The notes under the pieces are model-generated. The model was not told the DNA's origin and searched no databases. It worked only from the letters and a program-made list of their open reading frames with translations. The translations under genes and the position numbers were made by a program. A stretch of 32,000 nucleotides of DNA from Blochmannia endosymbiont of Camponotus nipponensis (lineage in GTDB: Bacteria > Pseudomonadota > Gammaproteobacteria > Enterobacterales > Enterobacteriaceae): contig NZ_CP046534.1 of NCBI RefSeq assembly GCF_009827135.1, positions 720,001 through 752,000 on the forward strand, given 5' to 3'. Positions 3,309 through 28,526 of the stretch are shown piece after piece. Positions within the stretch are counted from its first letter, which is position 1; each line of letters starts with the position of its first letter.

Positions 3309-3940
3309 TTATAATAATGATGTATTTGATATTAATGCTTTTAATAAAATTTTTACGAGCATATATATGGTGATAATTATTTGATGAAGCATAATTATTA
3401 ATATGTTTATTGATTGTAGTTAATTTTTATATCTAACTTTAATGGGTATCAATATATTTGATTACTGTCATTATCGTAATAAATGGTAAAAAGATGTCAA
3501 TAGAATATTTAAGATTAATGAATGGTTATTCTGATCCATTTAAATGGGTGATAATCATGTTAAAATATCAGGATACTTTGTTATTATGTGGTTTAATTAA
3601 AAATTAATTACAAGTTGTAGATCATTTTATATATAAAAATTGATAAATATATGGTTATTAACTATTGTAATTTGCGAGTTGTTAAATTTTAATAAAAAGG
3701 GAAGAGTAAATTTGATTAAATTGATTTTTTCATAAATTTATTAATGAATGCTTTATATTATAATAGTTGTTTCTGAAACAAATAATATATATATGTATAT
3801 ATATATTATTTTGACTATATATTTTTAATATATTATCAGCAAATGTTTCGGTTATAAGTATTTAAGTTAGGTAATTGTTATAACGGGAACATTGGGATAA
3901 CTTAAATTTTCATGTTAGTTAGTTTGATATTTGATTTATG

Positions 3941-4576
3941 TCATGTAATTTCAGTACATTGCATAGTACAGTCACTGCATTCAAATCCTACTTCTGGATG
4001 AAAGGTACAAATATTGCATGAGTTTATTTCTTTGCAACAATATAATTTAATACGATCTTTTTTAGTATATAAGTATGCTAAACCGATGCTTAATAAAATT
4101 ATAAGCATTATTGTTAAATTCATTATATATTTTACCTGATTTTTTATGTTGATCAGAATAGGTGATGACGAGTGATTGTTTTGATCCTCAGTTTTTTTCA
4201 GAGGAGAGGATATGTAGAGTTGATCTTCATTAATTTTTTCTATAATTAATTGATTATTTAATCTTAATCCTCGTTTAGGAATTGTTACAATAGACGAAGC
4301 TTCTAATCCAAAAGAAGTAAAAGTTTTTCTTATTAAACTAATTTGTTGATTTAAGTTTCCATTAGATGGTTCAAGTCCATAAGCTCTCCAAACGATTGAA
4401 AACAAGTGTTCTCGAGTAACTGGCGCGCAAACATCAGTATTCCGTTGTTTAATTAGTTCTTCTAATACCCGTCCAGCAGAATTAGACAATTTTACTGATG
4501 TATTAGAATCAGTTAATGATGTTAAAACATATTCTGTAGTGTCAAATATTATGGTAGATTGAATTACATATTTCAT
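3941..4576 (-). CDS. ToxR/CadC-like membrane-anchored winged-helix transcriptional regulator with a short Cys-rich periplasmic tail
   Basis: Residues ~25-108 align with the ToxR wHTH: LSNSAGRVLEELIK..VTREHLFSIVWRAYGLEPSNGNLNQQISLIRKTF...IVTIPKRGLRL versus ToxR LGSNESRILWLL..ISRNDLHDFVWREQGFEVDDSSLTQAISTLRKML..VKTVPKRGYQL. There is one hydrophobic segment, NLTIMLIILLSIGLAYLY (aa ~152-170). A 41-aa tail follows with Cys at 180, 181, 187, 190, 200, 203 and 207. A 636-nt ORF in DNA this AT-rich is unlikely to stay open by chance. Confidence 0.75.
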   Translation of the reverse strand: MKYVIQSTIIFDTTEYVLTSLTDSNTSVKLSNSAGRVLEELIKQRNTDVCAPVTREHLFSIVWRAYGLEPSNGNLNQQISLIRKTFTSFGLEASSIVTIPKRGLRLNNQLIIEKINEDQLYISSPLKKTEDQNNHSSSPILINIKNQVKYIMNLTIMLIILLSIGLAYLYTKKDRIKLYCCKEINSCNICTFHPEVGFECSDCTMQCTEIT

Positions 4577-5195
4577 TTAGTTACTCTATATGAACTGTAA
4601 ATTGACAAAGTCAGATTCATGTCAGTTGTTTATATAAAATTTAAATAATATTATTTTTTAATTGAAATATATAAAAACTATAAAAAGTATTTTATTATGA
4701 AAATTTGCTTTAACATGATTTTAATTATATTATTTTAGATTATGGTAGTTTTACAATTTATTTCAGATAGTATAATACCATACCATAAAAAAGCTAGCAT
4801 GTTAGTACATGTATTGTTTCAGGAGAAATATAAAATGATACATATTATATATGTTAGTACGCCAATGATATATAAATTATTATTCAATCAATTTTAGCGT
4901 TAAATTGAATAGTATGCGTTAATTAAACTTTAGTTGAGCACAGAATAATAAGTATTGTAAGTCTCCATTAGTGTTAAGATAATATTTTTAATTTAATGTT
5001 ATATATAATAATTTGATTTTTTAAAGTATCATGATATTTGTAAATACTGCAAAAATGCATGTTTAGCTATATATGGTTTCAATTGATGTTGTTAGTATCA
5101 TTGATTTATATGATTTTTATTGAAAAAAATTAATGACCAGTATAATTGTGATGATTGTATGAGTATGTTGAAAACATGTAATAGTTATAAATATC

Positions 5196-7328
5196 ATGTA
5201 TATGGTATATGATGTATGGTGTATGGTGTATTTTTTATATTTTAAAATATTAATTCATATAATGTTATTTATAATATATTTCACATTGATTATGTTGATT
5301 GTTAATCATACTCAAGCTAATTCAAACGATGCATCATTTCACGGTAGATCCGAGGAAGTTTCCGTATCGGTGTCTGATGATATACAAAATTTGCCTATAT
5401 TATTACAAGAAAAAGTGCACGACGATATCGTAACTATTATTTTACCAAAAAATTCTCCATTAATTTTTACCTCTTCTCCCTCAAAATTTTTGCAATCGTT
5501 TTATGTAACTGATATGTCTGATTATTTAAAAAATATTGTTGGTTTTAATTCTATTCGTAACGGAGGAGTAAATAACGAACCAACATTTCGTGGAATGTTT
5601 GGGTCTCGGATACGTATTTTGATGAATAGTGGTGAAATACTTGGAGCTTGTTTTTCTCACATGGATCCTGTTAGTGCTTATATTTCTCCAAACACTTTTG
5701 ATATTTTAAATATTATTAAGGGCCCTCAAACGGTACTATGGGGTCCTGTAACATCTGGAGGTACATTACAATTTGAACGATATCATCCTCGTTTTGATAG
5801 ATCAAAAATTCAATTACGTAGCAATGTAGCAATTGGCGCAAATAATAGAATGGATAAAAATATAGATAGTATCATAGGGAATAAATATGGTTATCTTAGA
5901 TTAATAGGAGAGGTTTCTAGTGCGGATGATTATTATGATGGTAATAAACACCGAGTACATTCTGCATGGTATAAATGGAATGCTGATGCAATTTTATCAT
6001 TCAATATTGGTACGGACACATGTTTGGAAGTTAGTTTGGGACAAGGCAATGGTCATGCAAATTATGCTGCTCGATCTATGGATGGGTTATGTTTTGCTAG
6101 AGAAAGTTATGCAATAAAAATAGAAACTTCGAATATAAGTGAAACATTAGATAAAATTGAATTGCAAGCATGGCGCAATTATGTAAACCATATTATGGCT
6201 GATACTACTATACCTTATATTACAAAATCTTCTACTAAAAAATGTTGTGGTTTCAGTGAAAATTTCAATAACAATATTGATCGATTGATATGGGGGGTTC
6301 GAGGTATCGCTGTGTCTCAGTGGGATAATATTAAGTGTTACAGTGGTGCGGATCTACAAATTAATAAACATAGAAAATACGCACAATCTGATGCTAATTG
6401 GAAAACAGATATTATTTCTCAAGATACTGGTGTATTTACCGAATTGATTGTTGATTCGTTGTCAGATAGAAGATTAGTTGGCGGCGCGCGACTGGAATAT
6501 GGTGTAATTAATTTTAATAATCATTCTAAGTATAAACGAAATGCTATAGTATATCCTGCTGGATTTATACGATATGAAAATAATGTTAATCCATTATTGT
6601 CGTATTATATTGGTGTGGGAACAAGCTTTCGTTTTCCAGATTACTGGGAATTATTTTCTACTAAATTGGGTGAAAATCTTAATATTGAAAATATTTTTCA
6701 ATTAAAACCTGAAAGATCCATACAAATAGATACAGGAGTATATTTTCAGCATCTACAAACAAACGGATGGATATCATCTTATGTTGGGTATGTTAAAGAT
6801 TTTATTTTATCTGATTACAATAATCATGCTACCACATCAGATGATACTAATTATGCAAAAAACACTCATGTTAAAATATGTGGCGCTGAAGCAGGATTAA
6901 ATTATAAATTTAATGATCATTGGAGTACTGAAGGCAATATTTCATGGGCTTGGGGCGTTAATATAAACGATAATTTTATTTTGCCTACAATTCCTCCATT
7001 GGAAGGGAAAATAACATGTCAATGGACACACGGATATTACAGTATAGCTACTTTATGGAGGTTTATGTTAGCACAACAGTCTAATAATAATGAGTGGTTC
7101 CATACAAGAATAAATTGTAATACCCCAGGTTTTGGAATATTATCCGTACATCTAGCATGGACGAGTTCTCGATTTTATAAATTTAGCGTTGGTGTAGATA
7201 ATTTATTAAATCATAATTATAGAGAATACTTGAGTTCACATATTCATAAACGATTTGGATATCCTGATAGAAAGTTAATTTATGAACCAGGACGTACTTG
7301 GTGGGTTAAAGTAGGGATGATATTCTAA
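5196..7328 (+). CDS. TonB-dependent outer-membrane receptor, OprC/NosA (copper) family
   Basis: The plug motif is NEPTFRGMFGSRIRILMNSGEILGACFSHMDPVSAYISP ... IKGPQTVLWGP. A TonB-box-like DDIVTII lies near the N-terminus. The barrel is long and ends in a terminal aromatic (WWVKVGMIF). CxxxM (C152, M156) and HxM (H332, M334) are present. The start is uncertain: in-frame ATGs occur at 5196, 5223 and 5262. The signal-peptide-like MLFIIYFTLIMLIVNHTQA|NS begins at 5262. Confidence 0.88.
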   Translation: MYMVYDVWCMVYFLYFKILIHIMLFIIYFTLIMLIVNHTQANSNDASFHGRSEEVSVSVSDDIQNLPILLQEKVHDDIVTIILPKNSPLIFTSSPSKFLQSFYVTDMSDYLKNIVGFNSIRNGGVNNEPTFRGMFGSRIRILMNSGEILGACFSHMDPVSAYISPNTFDILNIIKGPQTVLWGPVTSGGTLQFERYHPRFDRSKIQLRSNVAIGANNRMDKNIDSIIGNKYGYLRLIGEVSSADDYYDGNKHRVHSAWYKWNADAILSFNIGTDTCLEVSLGQGNGHANYAARSMDGLCFARESYAIKIETSNISETLDKIELQAWRNYVNHIMADTTIPYITKSSTKKCCGFSENFNNNIDRLIWGVRGIAVSQWDNIKCYSGADLQINKHRKYAQSDANWKTDIISQDTGVFTELIVDSLSDRRLVGGARLEYGVINFNNHSKYKRNAIVYPAGFIRYENNVNPLLSYYIGVGTSFRFPDYWELFSTKLGENLNIENIFQLKPERSIQIDTGVYFQHLQTNGWISSYVGYVKDFILSDYNNHATTSDDTNYAKNTHVKICGAEAGLNYKFNDHWSTEGNISWAWGVNINDNFILPTIPPLEGKITCQWTHGYYSIATLWRFMLAQQSNNNEWFHTRINCNTPGFGILSVHLAWTSSRFYKFSVGVDNLLNHNYREYLSSHIHKRFGYPDRKLIYEPGRTWWVKVGMIF

Positions 7329-8126: not shown

Positions 8127-9095
<969 letters not shown>

Positions 9096-9722
9096 TCATA
9101 TCTCATTCAAACAAAATGCATATATTGCTTCTGTATATTGCATTAAGTATTGATTTTTTTGATATTTAATGTTTTTTAAAAATTAAAATTGATGTAAAAA
9201 ATAAGTTATAAGTATGCTAAAAATAATAATTCATTTTAGTTATATGAATATATTTATTTTTTATTAACATTAAATATATTTTTTAACAATACTAATATGT
9301 GGTTAAACATTTAATTTTTTTGTATGATTGAGAATAAGAATCGTAGCAAAACATATAGATGTTTAATGATATAATTAAATTTATACAACTAATATTAAGA
9401 TCATACATAACAAATAACACATTATAAGACATACTTGTAATATACAGCAAGTGTTTTATACAAAATTTAACAGTATTTTTTTAACTTTTGTTAGATACAA
9501 ATGAATATTTGTCCGATACATATATATAATTTTGAAATAATATTTTGAATATGTTGTTGGTTCAACATGTATATAAATTACTGAATTAATATAAGTTGTT
9601 ATCATTGTAATTATTTATACAAATTAAAATGTTATTATTTATTCTAAGTAAGAATACTCAATATAAAAAGGGGATATTAAATTTAATAAATTTTATCCAA
9701 ATATTTAAGTAAGGAATATTAT

Positions 9723-12837: not shown

Positions 12838-13560
12838 TGCTTGATAGTTAATTAACCTGTATTCTATTGCATGTGTATAAAATTACTATTTTGTACAAAA
12901 ATAAAAAATCATATCAAGCAACACTAGGTTGAATTTCATACAATATACATTATATGAACAAATATTGTATTTAATAAATTTATTGAACACATTGTTAGTA
13001 GTGATTTAAACACATTATTTTCATCATGTAAAATATTATGAATAATGCTATTGTTTAAGTTTATACAATAGTAAGCTATTTTAGTTGCTATATTATCGCG
13101 AGATATAAATAATTCAAACGGTATTCTAATAAAAGCCACTATTTTAGTATAGTATTTAAAGATACTTCATATATCATTATTAATATAAAATATATATATA
13201 TTAAATTAAAAGTTTTTGTATATTAATATGAATTTATTATTTCATGAAGATTCAAAGAAATTATTTAAATTATTTTAAATAATTATTGATTATAAAAAGT
13301 ATAAAAGTAGATGATATTCAAATATTTGCGTTTAAATATGTACCGTGGCTTTAATGTATTTTTTTTGATATTAATTTTACTGAAGATAAACTATTATATA
13401 TAATTTGTATATTAGCTCGCATATAAGACTAATCTATTTTATTTAAAACATTTTAGTATTATTACATTTATCGTATTTCAACTTTCTAAAAATATAGAGA
13501 GGATGTGTTATAATAAATTATTTGTAATAAGCATTATTTTTTGTTAGAATGTTTTTAACA

Positions 13561-13639
13561 ATTAATTATATTTGTAAAGTAACTATATACGCTATATATT
13601 ATATATAGCGTATATAGTTACTTTACAAATATAATTAAT
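13561..13639. repeat. Perfect 79-bp palindrome (39-bp arms around a single central T at 13600)
   Basis: I checked all 39 pairs by hand. Bases 13561-13599 (attaattatatttgtaaagtaactatatacgctatatat) are the exact reverse complement of 13601-13639. Pairing breaks at 13560/13640. Confidence 0.97.
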
Positions 13640-13962
13640 CTGTATATTTTACAAATTGTAAAATAATGAATATATGAAATATATAATGATGTGTTTCCTA
13701 TTTATAATAGGAATGGTTGTGTGTTTTTTTTTTGAAAAAACAGTATTAGTATAAAGAACATGAACTACTATTTTTATAAGAAATGCATCAGTATAGAAAA
13801 TAATACTATTTTATATGCATAAAGTGTAATTGTATGATGAATTTGGTGTAAAATAAATATAGATCTAATATAGATTGTTATAATTGATGATGAACTGAAG
13901 TGATAATTAACATATGTTACTACTAAATTAGTACATGATAAAATAGATAGTATAGGTTAAAA

Positions 13963-26386: not shown

Positions 26387-28372
26387 TTATTTATTAGAAG
26401 TAAAACTATCATCATCACTACTACTGTTATCTGTAATGCAATCTTCGTGCATAGATGATGCAGATTGAGCAATATTTAATTTAATAAATATTTTTTCCAT
26501 ATCACCAAAGTATTTGTTTTTTTTTCTCTCTGCTATAGTATTTTCAAGTTTATTTATATGTTCTGTGGTACCTATTAAAGAAAATTTAGTTTGCTTATGT
26601 GCAGACAAACGGTACGATAAATCTTCATTTTTATTCAATATAACTTTAGAATGTTCAACCAAATTATCATGTATCTCTTTTTTATTTCTATTTTCTTCAG
26701 AATCAGCATCATGATCTTCATGAAACGCAGAAGAGGACGATAGCGGTAATGTATCATCGTTTAATGTTGATGATGCAATGATAAATGAAGATTCTTTTTC
26801 TGAAAAAAGCAAAGGAATTGGAGGAGGAATAGGAATGGAAAGTATACAATCATTTTCTGTTGTAACATTCTGTGCATGTTCTTTTGTAGTATCGTGTGTG
26901 ATATGTTCTGTAGTAATATTTGAAAGAGACATATTATTTTTTGTTTGATGATGATCATCATTATACATTGATGTATGTGTAACTGTGTCTTTTACAACAT
27001 TAATTTCGGAATCATTATTAAAATTAATAACGGAAGAAGAAGTTTGTTTTTGTGTGTTTAATGATTGTTTTTGTGAAAAATCTTTTACTAAAATAGGTAT
27101 ATCTTGTTTTCTTTGTTTTTGAGGAGTTTTATTTGAATTCGTAATATATGAAATAAAAATTTTGTCTTCTTGTGTAATAGGATGGTCAGGTAAATATAAC
27201 GCATAAGTGTCATTTGTTATTGCAATGATATTACCTCCTTGATTTTGCAGTAACTGAAAATTCCATTGTATAGATTCGTTATCACTGTCATCAATTTTAA
27301 TTATTTTTATTTCTCCAGGATAACCCGTTATTTTTTGAATATTTTGTAATGATTTAGTGTAATTATTATGTTTATTAAATAGAATACAATCACGACATGG
27401 AGTGACGGTAGGTATAAATGGTGATTGCACCATAGTATCAATATCGCTCAATATTGATTTATTTCGTTTATTTGTATAATTTATTTGTTCTGCAATAGGC
27501 ACACCAAATTGATAATTTATCAATACCTGACAAACAGTATTAAAATATTTATTGTTTACAAAAATATTGTTTATATTGCATCCTAATATGGGAAAAGGTT
27601 GATAATTTAGAGCTAATGATATACAGTAGTCGTTATTTTTTTTATTAAAAATTTTTTTGTATTTTTTGCTATAAACAAATTGCTCTAATTTTATTTTTCC
27701 AGTAAATTCGGGAAAATATGGAAATTTAGTGTGCATATGTATTTGGTAGCCACTTTTTGGGCAGTGTATGCTACATTTTTTTGATGATGATGTTTCAAAA
27801 TTAAAAACACTATTTAAATTATAATAATTGTTTAGCATAAATAATGTATTATATAACCAATATTCTACGCCAACATTAATTGAATATGGTTGACTACTGT
27901 GACTAGAAAGAGGGCAATGGTAAAAAGTATTGTATCCAATAGCATATTTATCATTAGTTAAATGTCTTTTTCCCCCTCCAAAATTAAAAATTGGTTCTGA
28001 TAAAAAATCATGTATTCCTAGTTGCATGAAAGATATATTTTTTTGATGTGTGCTACATTGTGTATGAAATGAGTGGAACATATTTATAGAATTATTTTGT
28101 AATTGTATTTTAGATCTGTAAATAGAAGAAAATGGAGATGTATAATTATACGCATGCACACGCAGTTTATTTGTTGTATAGGGAGAAAAATTGAGAGTTT
28201 GACGTACATAGTCTTGAGTATTACATTTCATTTCTTTCTGATATGTTTCATCTTGAAACATACTATTACTCATCATATTAAACTTAACGTTATTTTTGAA
28301 CGTATTACACCAAGCGGTCTCGTTGTGTACAAGTATTTGAAATACTATTCCCAATATAATTAATCTCAGCAT
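26387..28372 (-). CDS. Inverse autotransporter (intimin/invasin-family beta-barrel plus one Ig-like module) with a long disordered C-terminal tail
   Basis: There is a signal-peptide-like N-terminus (MLRLIILGIVFQILV). Residues ~165-300 track the intimin barrel as I recall it: GVEYWLYNTLF.. vs GAEYWRDYFK; KSGYQIHMHTKFPYFPEFTGKIKLEQF vs ANGFDIRFNGYLPSYPALGAKLIYEQY; LALNYQPFPIL vs VGVNYTPIPLV; INYQFGVPIAEQI vs FRYQFDKSWSQQI. IQWNFQLLQNQGGNI matches IVWDDSALRSQGGQI of the first Ig-like module. The frame stays open for ~2 kb in very AT-rich DNA. I prefer ATG 28372 as the start; the track uses TTG 28378. Confidence 0.78.
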   Translation of the reverse strand: MLRLIILGIVFQILVHNETAWCNTFKNNVKFNMMSNSMFQDETYQKEMKCNTQDYVRQTLNFSPYTTNKLRVHAYNYTSPFSSIYRSKIQLQNNSINMFHSFHTQCSTHQKNISFMQLGIHDFLSEPIFNFGGGKRHLTNDKYAIGYNTFYHCPLSSHSSQPYSINVGVEYWLYNTLFMLNNYYNLNSVFNFETSSSKKCSIHCPKSGYQIHMHTKFPYFPEFTGKIKLEQFVYSKKYKKIFNKKNNDYCISLALNYQPFPILGCNINNIFVNNKYFNTVCQVLINYQFGVPIAEQINYTNKRNKSILSDIDTMVQSPFIPTVTPCRDCILFNKHNNYTKSLQNIQKITGYPGEIKIIKIDDSDNESIQWNFQLLQNQGGNIIAITNDTYALYLPDHPITQEDKIFISYITNSNKTPQKQRKQDIPILVKDFSQKQSLNTQKQTSSSVINFNNDSEINVVKDTVTHTSMYNDDHHQTKNNMSLSNITTEHITHDTTKEHAQNVTTENDCILSIPIPPPIPLLFSEKESSFIIASSTLNDDTLPLSSSSAFHEDHDADSEENRNKKEIHDNLVEHSKVILNKNEDLSYRLSAHKQTKFSLIGTTEHINKLENTIAERKKNKYFGDMEKIFIKLNIAQSASSMHEDCITDNSSSDDDSFTSNK

Positions 28373-28526
28373 GTTCAATATTTTGTTTTAATGAAAATAT
28401 TTTGTATTGTACATAATATATAGTATATTTATATTTTAATTTTTACAGTCTTAAATAAATAATCAATATATATAAATTTATTAAATTAACAATCAAATTT
28501 TTAAATAAAAATTGAATTTTTTTAAT

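Follow-up and report, generated by a model that had tools for sequence, protein, structure and literature searches.

The gene at positions 3941..4576 of the minus strand, in a stretch of 32,000 nucleotides from the Blochmannia endosymbiont of Camponotus nipponensis (contig NZ_CP046534.1, positions 720,001 to 752,000; the whole stretch is referred to as the window), raises the question of what a membrane-bound transcription regulator is, and how it might operate, when all that follows its membrane helix is a short tail crowded with cysteines. The open reading frame (ORF) is a complete coding sequence for 211 amino acids (aa), with an ATG start and a TGA stop at 3941-3943, as judged from the ORF list and the sequence. 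A preceding reading of the letters alone, made without database searches (the sequence-only reading), had described a ToxR-like winged helix-turn-helix (wHTH), a linker, a single transmembrane (TM) helix and a 41-aa tail with seven cysteines, and this architecture was borne out by Pfam, Protein Data Bank (PDB) and AlphaFold2 (AF2) comparisons, by Kyte-Doolittle hydropathy and by translation. It is highly probable that the gene is both the Blochmannia orthologue of the YqeI/MarT/GrvA-type regulators, which are partnered by FidL or YqeJ, and a truncated form of them. The YqeI/YqeJ, MarT/FidL and GrvA/FidL pairs are known as "co-component" systems and belong to the VtrA/VtrC-ToxR/ToxS superfamily (PMC9214523). 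Lacking both a partner gene and the complete periplasmic fold with the C-terminal disulfide, the Blochmannia protein is better described as an orphaned and truncated derivative of such systems than as one of them.

The cytoplasmic, DNA-binding part of the protein, a ToxR-type wHTH, occupies aa 1-112 (4241..4576, minus strand) and was identified with Pfam, a profile search of the PDB, and AF2 and Foldseek. Pfam PF00486 (Trans_reg_C) matched aa 26-105 over the full profile with 20.4 bits (E=5.6e-4), which is under the gathering score of 26.2 bits, a cutoff that some orthologues exceed. Despite this sub-threshold match the assignment is secure, because a profile of the family matched the ToxR DNA-binding domain (8b4b, E=1e-16) and CadC (5ju7, E=1e-5) in the PDB, and because the AF2 model, with a predicted local distance difference test (pLDDT) score >90 over aa 1-110, was superposed by Foldseek on ToxR from the ToxR-DNA complexes of 8b4b with a TM score of 0.89. 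The domain is an N-terminal wHTH of the OmpR/PhoB type without a receiver domain, as in the ToxR-like transmembrane transcription regulators (TTRs), and its recognition-helix motif SNGNLNQQ..RK is invariant from Blochmannia through Sodalis, so that DNA-binding specificity has been kept. It is followed by a low-complexity juxtamembrane linker (4127..4240, minus strand, aa 113-150), the least conserved segment, with AF2 pLDDT <50 for aa 119-138, and by a single TM helix (4070..4126, minus strand, aa 151-169) that lies C-terminal to the DNA-binding domain, as is also usual for TTRs. The helix was placed by Kyte-Doolittle hydropathy, with a 19-aa maximum of 2.33 at aa 151-169 and 0.84 for the runner-up segment, and by AF2, which modelled a helix over aa 139-175. 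A hydrophobic segment with Kyte-Doolittle values of 1.75-3.18 is kept in 36/36 Blochmannia homologues, a set that throughout comprises the window protein and 35 other Blochmannia proteins. The remaining 41-aa C-terminal tail, TKKDRIKLYCCKEINSCNICTFHPEVGFECSDCTMQCTEIT (nt 3944-4066 of the yqeI ORF 3941-4576, minus strand), is presumably periplasmic, as the N-terminal domain must sit in the cytoplasm to bind DNA. The folded periplasmic sensor domain of TTRs is absent, with 41-42 residues after the TM helix and an AF2 pLDDT of ~50 over the tail, and the sequence-only reading was right that 41 aa are too few for a ToxR-type periplasmic fold, the ToxR domain having ~90 aa.

The nearest homologues are 35 proteins of 197-229 aa that are 50-80% identical to the window protein, and all named ones are from Blochmannia. 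They are followed by proteins of 265-291 aa from Sodalis, Acerihabitans, Biostraticola and Wigglesworthia, several of which are annotated as YqeI and which are 38-52% identical; in these full-length relatives, the identity spans the wHTH, the TM helix and the first 40 periplasmic residues. A paper of 2006 already gave the name yqeI to Bfl390 of B. floridanus and identified it as a wHTH protein (PMC1360075). Comparison with YqeI of Escherichia coli K-12 by hhalign gave a probability of 99.1% (E=1.4e-18, 220 columns, 26% identity), and this YqeI-type homology spans the TM helix and continues in the periplasmic domain. In a neighbour-joining tree built from aa 1-170 only, the Blochmannia proteins were monophyletic within a Sodalis-allied group. 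Identity with CadC was considered and rejected: NF007540, the NCBIfam CadC equivalog model, reached 16.3 bits where the cutoff is 400 and matched the wHTH only, and the large periplasmic pH/cadaverine sensor is missing.

Co-component regulators have a small periplasmic beta2-alpha-beta3 domain, the C-terminal strand of which docks on a lipocalin-like partner, and a conserved disulfide joins its last two strands (PMC9214523). The Blochmannia tail aligns residue by residue with the first ~40 aa (beta1-beta2-helix) of the ~100-aa YqeI-type periplasmic domain of Sodalis, Acerihabitans and Wigglesworthia, with KLYCCKEINSCNICTFHPEVGFECSDCTMQCTE of the tail matching KLYFFSQINTCKVYTFHPIPGLEKEDYRLRIAE at the start of the ancestral domain (tblastn E=2e-7); the earlier view of the tail as a whole, free-standing periplasmic design is therefore abandoned. 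In the AF2 model of a full-length relative (P0036, periplasmic pLDDT 70-85), the domain consists of strands b1 (178-183) and b2 (186-190), a helix (196-213) and strands b3 (221-229), b4 (241-250) and b5 (256-265). Alignments equate the conserved membrane-proximal stub of the window protein, KLYCCKEINSCNICTF (4001..4048, minus strand, aa 177-192, with the pattern CC-x5-C-x2-C), with the beta1-turn-beta2 hairpin of the ancestral domain, and alignment to the P0036 model equates the distal tail, ECSDCTMQCTEIT (3944..3982, minus strand, aa 199-211, with Cys 200/203/207), with most of its single helix. Strands beta3-beta5, and with them three of the four ancestral cysteines and the edge that docks on the partner, are lost from 36/36 Blochmannia homologues, and the hairpin and most of the helix are kept. 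The alignment stops inside the helix, and neither the beta2-alpha-beta3 fold nor the disulfide between its last two strands is present. The periplasmic portion measures 99-105 aa with four Cys in the outgroup (two Cys in Sodalis sp. Psp), has a median of 100 aa in 138 TM-bearing representatives of the wider family (exactly four Cys in 128 of them), and measures 36-61 aa, with a mode of 42 and 3-7 Cys, in 36/36 Blochmannia proteins. The simplest reading is one old, genus-wide truncation, after which the yqeI stop shifted by -6 to +18 codons in a small number of Blochmannia lineages. When the full-length outgroup model was searched with Foldseek, the ToxR periplasmic domain (6utc) was matched only weakly (E=0.3).

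Two representatives of the wider family, P0077 (220 aa) and P0098 (230 aa), were also seen to have tails of ~42 aa after the TM helix, ending about where those of Blochmannia do and carrying the universal Cys only. Given these short tails with a single Cys, the gain of cysteines is, to judge from the sequences compared, peculiar to Blochmannia. A separate observation concerns P0038, from the metagenome-assembled genome (MAG) of Sodalis sp. Psp (L002), a YqeI-like protein of full length. Ser and Tyr replace its two C-terminal periplasmic cysteines, and no fidL was detectable within 6 kb; it may represent a state halfway from that of free-living bacteria to that of Blochmannia.

In 11 free-living relatives, yqeI is followed, often with an overlap, by a gene of ~155 aa with an N-terminal TM helix, and the Acerihabitans copy of this partner gene matched Pfam FidL_like (E=4e-18). 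No FidL/YqeJ/ToxS-type partner gene is adjacent to yqeI at the Blochmannia loci examined. On the 3' side of the yqeI stop lies a gene-free spacer of 632 bp (3309..3940), in which one would expect the missing 3' end of yqeI and the fidL/yqeJ-like gene. No ORF of at least 30 aa was present on the yqeI strand in 3309-3940, and the plus strand held two mechanical ORFs of 49 and 31 aa, so that the earlier description of the downstream 630 bp as ORF-free stands for the strand of the gene and fails for the other. Its companion claim, that no toxS-like gene follows, agrees with the lack of any ORF or tblastn signal. The partner search covered the loci and the 32-kb window rather than whole Blochmannia genomes, and within that scope ORF and tblastn searches did not find fidL at nine Blochmannia loci (the window, L003 and L016-L022) or elsewhere in the window; fidL was likewise not detected at either Wigglesworthia locus or in the Sodalis sp. 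Psp MAG. When six outgroup C-terminal domains and four FidL-like proteins were used as tblastn queries against the spacers of the window and eight Blochmannia loci, no remnant of the domain or of the partner was found past the retained tail. The equivalent spacers measure 252-915 bp at other Blochmannia loci where the downstream transglycosylase gene (SLT) is retained. The missing DNA would amount to ~180 bp of yqeI and ~470 bp of fidL, which is near the size of the 632-bp spacer, a match that is suggestive only. No terminator and no Rfam match were found in 3309-3940.

At one of these loci (L016, 4637-4735), 3' of the stop of the closest orthologue, an in-frame read-through beginning YNQTNNNDSYYLDFNSKILIV was noted to have a weak alignment to GNVEKCKNNYIIIFSKTLIP, the portion of the ancestral domain that comes next. 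This read-through was not accepted as a remnant of the domain, its similarity (35% identity over 75 aa) being too weak and owed mostly to the retained part; it may be a slight trace of the vanished strand b3 or a coincidence.

A gene that has lost its partner and whose outgroup orthologues are ~60 aa longer might be a decaying pseudogene that a premature stop has cut short, and the sequence-only reading had indeed held that longer orthologues would mean a decaying gene. Longer orthologues exist in the outgroup, but decay is a very improbable explanation, since the truncated ORF is intact in 36/36 lineages across the symbionts of Colobopsis, Polyrhachis and Camponotus, the recognition helix is invariant and the ratios of nonsynonymous to synonymous substitution (dN/dS) resemble those of neighbouring housekeeping genes. 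By the Nei-Gojobori method (NG86), dN/dS was 0.13-0.31 for the whole yqeI gene (window versus five orthologues), 0.12-0.31 for the transglycosylase (SLT), 0.21-0.38 for the copper receptor and 0.04-0.19 for mntR; the purifying selection that the same reading had anticipated from comparison with sister genomes was thus found, and yqeI falls in the range of its neighbours. For the yqeI tail alone the ratio was 0.05-0.53, and in the closest pair the tail differs by 4 nonsynonymous and 11 synonymous changes, against a neutral expectation of ~4.7:1 (P=3e-6). The same syntenic block also shows that genes no longer needed have been removed: of the genes that E. coli has in the order trxB-lrp-ftsK-lolA-rarA-serS, the block is without lrp and rarA, and the spacers they left, 9081-9722 (0.64 kb) and 12838-13962 (1.1 kb, ~19% G+C), gave no tblastn remnant. 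As lrp and rarA vanished without trace, the Blochmannia genome does discard unneeded genes. These comparisons indicate that yqeI is not decaying and is retained under selection with a shortened tail.

The seven cysteines of the tail are at positions 180, 181, 187, 190, 200, 203 and 207, giving the pattern CC-x5-C-x2-C-x9-C-x2-C-x3-C. With a background Cys content of 1.5% in the 20 other ORFs of the window, the probability of at least seven in 41 residues is 2.8e-6, and no other window ORF has more than five Cys in any 41-aa window. All 36 Blochmannia sequences have C187 and C190, 35 have C181 and 33 have C180, which yields a genus-wide signature of CC-x5-C-x2-C. C187 is the sole Cys common to the whole family, and C190, C181 and C180 are Blochmannia innovations that stand in place of the hairpin Tyr, Phe and Phe of the outgroup (F-F...C..Y). 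The other three are far less widespread: C200 occurs in 12 of the 36 sequences, C203 in 6 and C207 in 7, and Tyr stands at these positions in 17, 14 and 20 sequences, respectively. They occur together only in the subclade of the window protein (P0001-P0006), C207 being found also in P0017; at these positions most other Blochmannia lineages have Tyr and the outgroup has K/E, Y/L and I/V, respectively. The basal symbionts of Colobopsis and Polyrhachis have C181, C187, C190 and C200, and most Camponotus symbionts have C180, with Tyr replacing C200. Counted over the whole tail, 23 lineages have four Cys, five have five, seven have seven and one has three. Taken from the alignment, the seven-Cys pattern is a composite of a conserved four-Cys core and a lineage-specific three-Cys extension, and the expectation that the full pattern would be conserved held genus-wide for C180, C181, C187 and C190 and failed for C200, C203 and C207, which are specific to the subclade. 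TGT and TGC alternate between species at all seven Cys codons with the Cys kept, and the changes from Phe to Cys (TTT to TGT) and from Tyr to Cys (TAT to TGT) each add a G, against the strong A+T pressure of the genome.

It could be argued that only the DNA-binding domain and the anchor matter, the stub being a tolerated, functionless leftover in which cysteines are incidental. Minimal anchored regulators that have no real periplasmic domain do exist, such as VtrB, which is listed without a partner (PMC10269533), the stop drifts by the -6 to +18 codons given above, and the ~42-aa tails of P0077 and P0098 make do with a single Cys. Mean pairwise identity over the 36 Blochmannia proteins divides the tail in two: the distal part (aa 193-211), at 0.36, would suit a leftover, whereas the membrane-proximal part (aa 171-192), at 0.68, is near the wHTH (aa 1-112, 0.73) and far above the linker (aa 113-148, 0.30) and the TM helix (aa 149-170, 0.47). 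As four cysteines are also held in 33-36 of 36 lineages despite synonymous codon turnover, and as dN/dS of the tail is well under 1, a functionless stub is considered unlikely.

The reading we favour, with a probability of about 0.55 for the statement as a whole, is that of a sensor-amputated, membrane-tethered regulator that is either constitutively competent or tuned by redox state only, its stub being held by new disulfides. On the way to Blochmannia, the partner gene was lost and yqeI was shortened by removal of strands beta3-beta5, which left a tail-anchored regulator with an intact DNA-binding domain, a membrane anchor and an external stub of ~40 aa made up of the hairpin and part of the helix. 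This stub would have been re-engineered by replacement of the buried hairpin aromatics (Phe-Phe and Tyr) with Cys, which would bring the Cys count back to four; four, the count in 23/36 lineages, is also the ancestral number and fits two disulfides that compensate for the lost hydrophobic core. The stub cysteines would most likely form disulfides, with C181-C190 as the candidate cross-strand bond and an inter-chain bond also possible; C181-C190 is plausible because F180 and Y189 of the outgroup, at the same positions, are cross-strand neighbours in the hairpin of the model, which has a 2-residue turn. C187, whose probable ancestral partner was lost by the truncation, would pair with C180 or, in the basal lineages, with C200. 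Such disulfides would rigidify the stub, favour dimerisation and shield it from periplasmic proteases, and the regulator, having no partner to sense a ligand, would work constitutively or be tuned by thiol state alone. In the subclade of the window, three more Tyr-to-Cys changes on one face of the helix would have raised the total to seven. A precedent is found in ToxR, for which the redox state of the periplasmic cysteines decides sensitivity to proteolysis initiated by DegS/DegP, with both intra- and inter-chain bonds occurring (PMC6242745, PMC7265457, PMC8359183).

Several points weigh against this reading. Five Lys/Arg residues flank the TM helix on its C-terminal side and one on its N-terminal side, contrary to the positive-inside rule; the C-out topology is adopted on homology and on the need for the DNA-binding domain to be in the cytoplasm, as the flank charge argues the opposite. 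Odd numbers of tail cysteines (five in five lineages, seven in seven, three in one) mean that not all can be in intramolecular pairs. C187-x2-C190 falls in a former beta-strand, where side chains i and i+3 point to opposite faces, so that it could form a CxxC redox or metal site of the classical kind only after refolding; pairing of C180 with C187 does not fit the ancestral register either. The AF2 model, built from 48 sequences, has a pLDDT of ~50 in the tail, from which no disulfide map can be read. The Blochmannia periplasm faces a reducing host cytosol, and a literature search did not find the DsbA/DsbB status of Blochmannia. The mechanism and the target genes of Blochmannia yqeI are, finally, what we infer.

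The odd and variable Cys numbers (3, 5, 7) would better suit a thiolate cluster or an inter-chain site than fixed disulfide pairs, and they lead to a rival in which the Cys stub is a new sensor, either a thiol redox switch or a metal site (Zn, Cu(I), Fe-S) perhaps bridging two chains, that reads the redox or metal state of the bacteriocyte and adjusts transcription. CadC and TcpP signal by the state of their periplasmic cysteines. The relative ToxR does likewise (PMC6242745). The near-invariant CC-x5-C-x2-C contains a CxxC, the Tyr-to-Cys changes of the window clade at i, i+3 and i+7 fall on one helix face, and yqeI sits between mntR and a TonB-dependent copper receptor. This adjacency, however, results from genome collapse and is not conserved, as Polyrhachis and Colobopsis symbionts are without the receptor and the neighbours differ in free-living relatives; the tail has neither similarity to known metal-binding families nor a confident fold. 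Cysteine metal sites are, moreover, unusual in the oxidising periplasm. A new sensor is accordingly a doubtful alternative to the sensor-amputated regulator, and we give somewhat less credence still to its fuller version, in which loss of the partner and of the docking half was followed by the rise of a new outer-face microdomain of 4-7 Cys that acts as a thiol sensor, whether as a redox switch or as a Cu/Zn/Fe-S site bridging chains.

The surroundings of the gene were examined across the window, which has ~27% G+C and a gene order of mnmA, mntR, an EmtA/MltC-like transglycosylase (SLT), yqeI, the TonB-dependent copper receptor, trxB, ftsK, lolA, serS and onward. The copper receptor (5196-7328, plus strand) was identified with TIGR01778 (481 bits against a cutoff of 472). 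It is present in Camponotus-clade Blochmannia (L016-L019, L022) and absent at the Polyrhachis/Colobopsis loci (L020, L021), where yqeI is kept, and in free-living relatives the neighbours of yqeI differ from those in Blochmannia. A role for yqeI as copper sensor of the adjacent receptor was rejected as the main explanation on these two grounds. The divergent intergenic region between yqeI and the copper receptor (4577..5195, 619 bp) contains a ribosome-binding site and, in a six-species alignment, several short stretches that are conserved from one species to another, with a GGAG-type site 8 nt 5' of the ATG in relatives. Footprinting of the 619 bp upstream over the six species gave short AT-rich conserved blocks and the ribosome-binding site, with no interpretable operator; promoter-like matches and terminator scans did not rise above shuffled sequence, and no Rfam family reached its gathering score anywhere in the 32-kb window.

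At some distance from yqeI, a 663-aa ORF (26387-28378, minus strand) showed weak similarity to the YchO/YchP-family invasins or inverse autotransporters (intimin/SinH-like), with E=1.7e-17 and a score far under the family cutoff. Such an adhesin-like protein of the outer membrane would not be expected in a mutualist that lives inside cells. In Salmonella, an autotransporter is controlled by MarT, which is related to the yqeI regulator (PMC9214523).

Blochmannia genomes measure 0.7-0.8 Mb, and obligate endosymbionts retain very few transcription factors. A type of regulator otherwise known from virulence control in enteric pathogens has been kept across the whole Blochmannia radiation with its sensor half amputated, and this retention points to an unrecognised, probably important regulatory function. 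The locus also amounts to a natural experiment that separates the dispensable parts of such a regulator (the partner and strands b3-b5) from the indispensable ones (the wHTH, the anchor and the membrane-proximal hairpin), and would provide an example of a lost hydrophobic core replaced by cysteines. Arranged in series, free-living Sodalis with regulator and partner, Wigglesworthia and Sodalis sp. Psp with the partner lost, and Blochmannia with the domain truncated and cysteines gained suggest a stepwise simplification of signalling. If the thiol-sensor reading were true, an obligate intracellular mutualist with almost no regulators would be sensing directly the redox or metal status of the bacteriocyte in which it lives. 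No description of a sensor-less, Cys-re-engineered yqeI kept in a 0.7-0.8-Mb mutualist was met with in the papers found.

Among known systems, ToxR/ToxS of Vibrio cholerae offers the closest solved structure of the DNA-binding domain (26-28% identity) and a similar overall topology. ToxR, however, has a folded periplasmic domain of ~90 aa with two Cys and needs ToxS, and the Blochmannia stub cannot take that fold; the stability of ToxR is governed by the state of its periplasmic cysteines (PMC6242745, PMC7265457). E. coli CadC has a related wHTH (5ju7, E=1e-5) but, unlike the Blochmannia protein, a large periplasmic sensor of two subdomains and the co-sensor LysP. In CadC, a periplasmic disulfide forms part of the switch. 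VtrB consists of a wHTH and a membrane anchor with little or nothing outside and can work alone, as is proposed for the Blochmannia protein; to our knowledge it has no Cys-rich stub. This likeness is one of working principle. VtrB is listed without a partner (PMC10269533 Table 1).

The closest likeness is to the YqeI/YqeJ system of E. coli and the MarT/FidL and GrvA/FidL systems, MarT/FidL being that of Salmonella, with which the Blochmannia protein shares the wHTH, the TM helix, the first periplasmic part and the universal Cys of the motif (E/Q)IN(S/T/G)C; its identity to E. coli YqeI is 25-26%. E. coli YqeJ and the FidL-like proteins of the Sodalis clade could not be aligned by BLASTP. Compared with YqeI/YqeJ and MarT/FidL, the Blochmannia protein is without beta3-beta5, the C-terminal disulfide and the partner gene, and has three to six new Cys in its stub. 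YqeI of Wigglesworthia and of Sodalis sp. Psp belong to the same orthologous group and, as in Blochmannia, have lost fidL, but both keep the full domain of ~100 aa, Wigglesworthia with all four ancestral cysteines and Sodalis sp. Psp with the two C-terminal ones lost. These two look like earlier stages of the trajectory that Blochmannia has followed.

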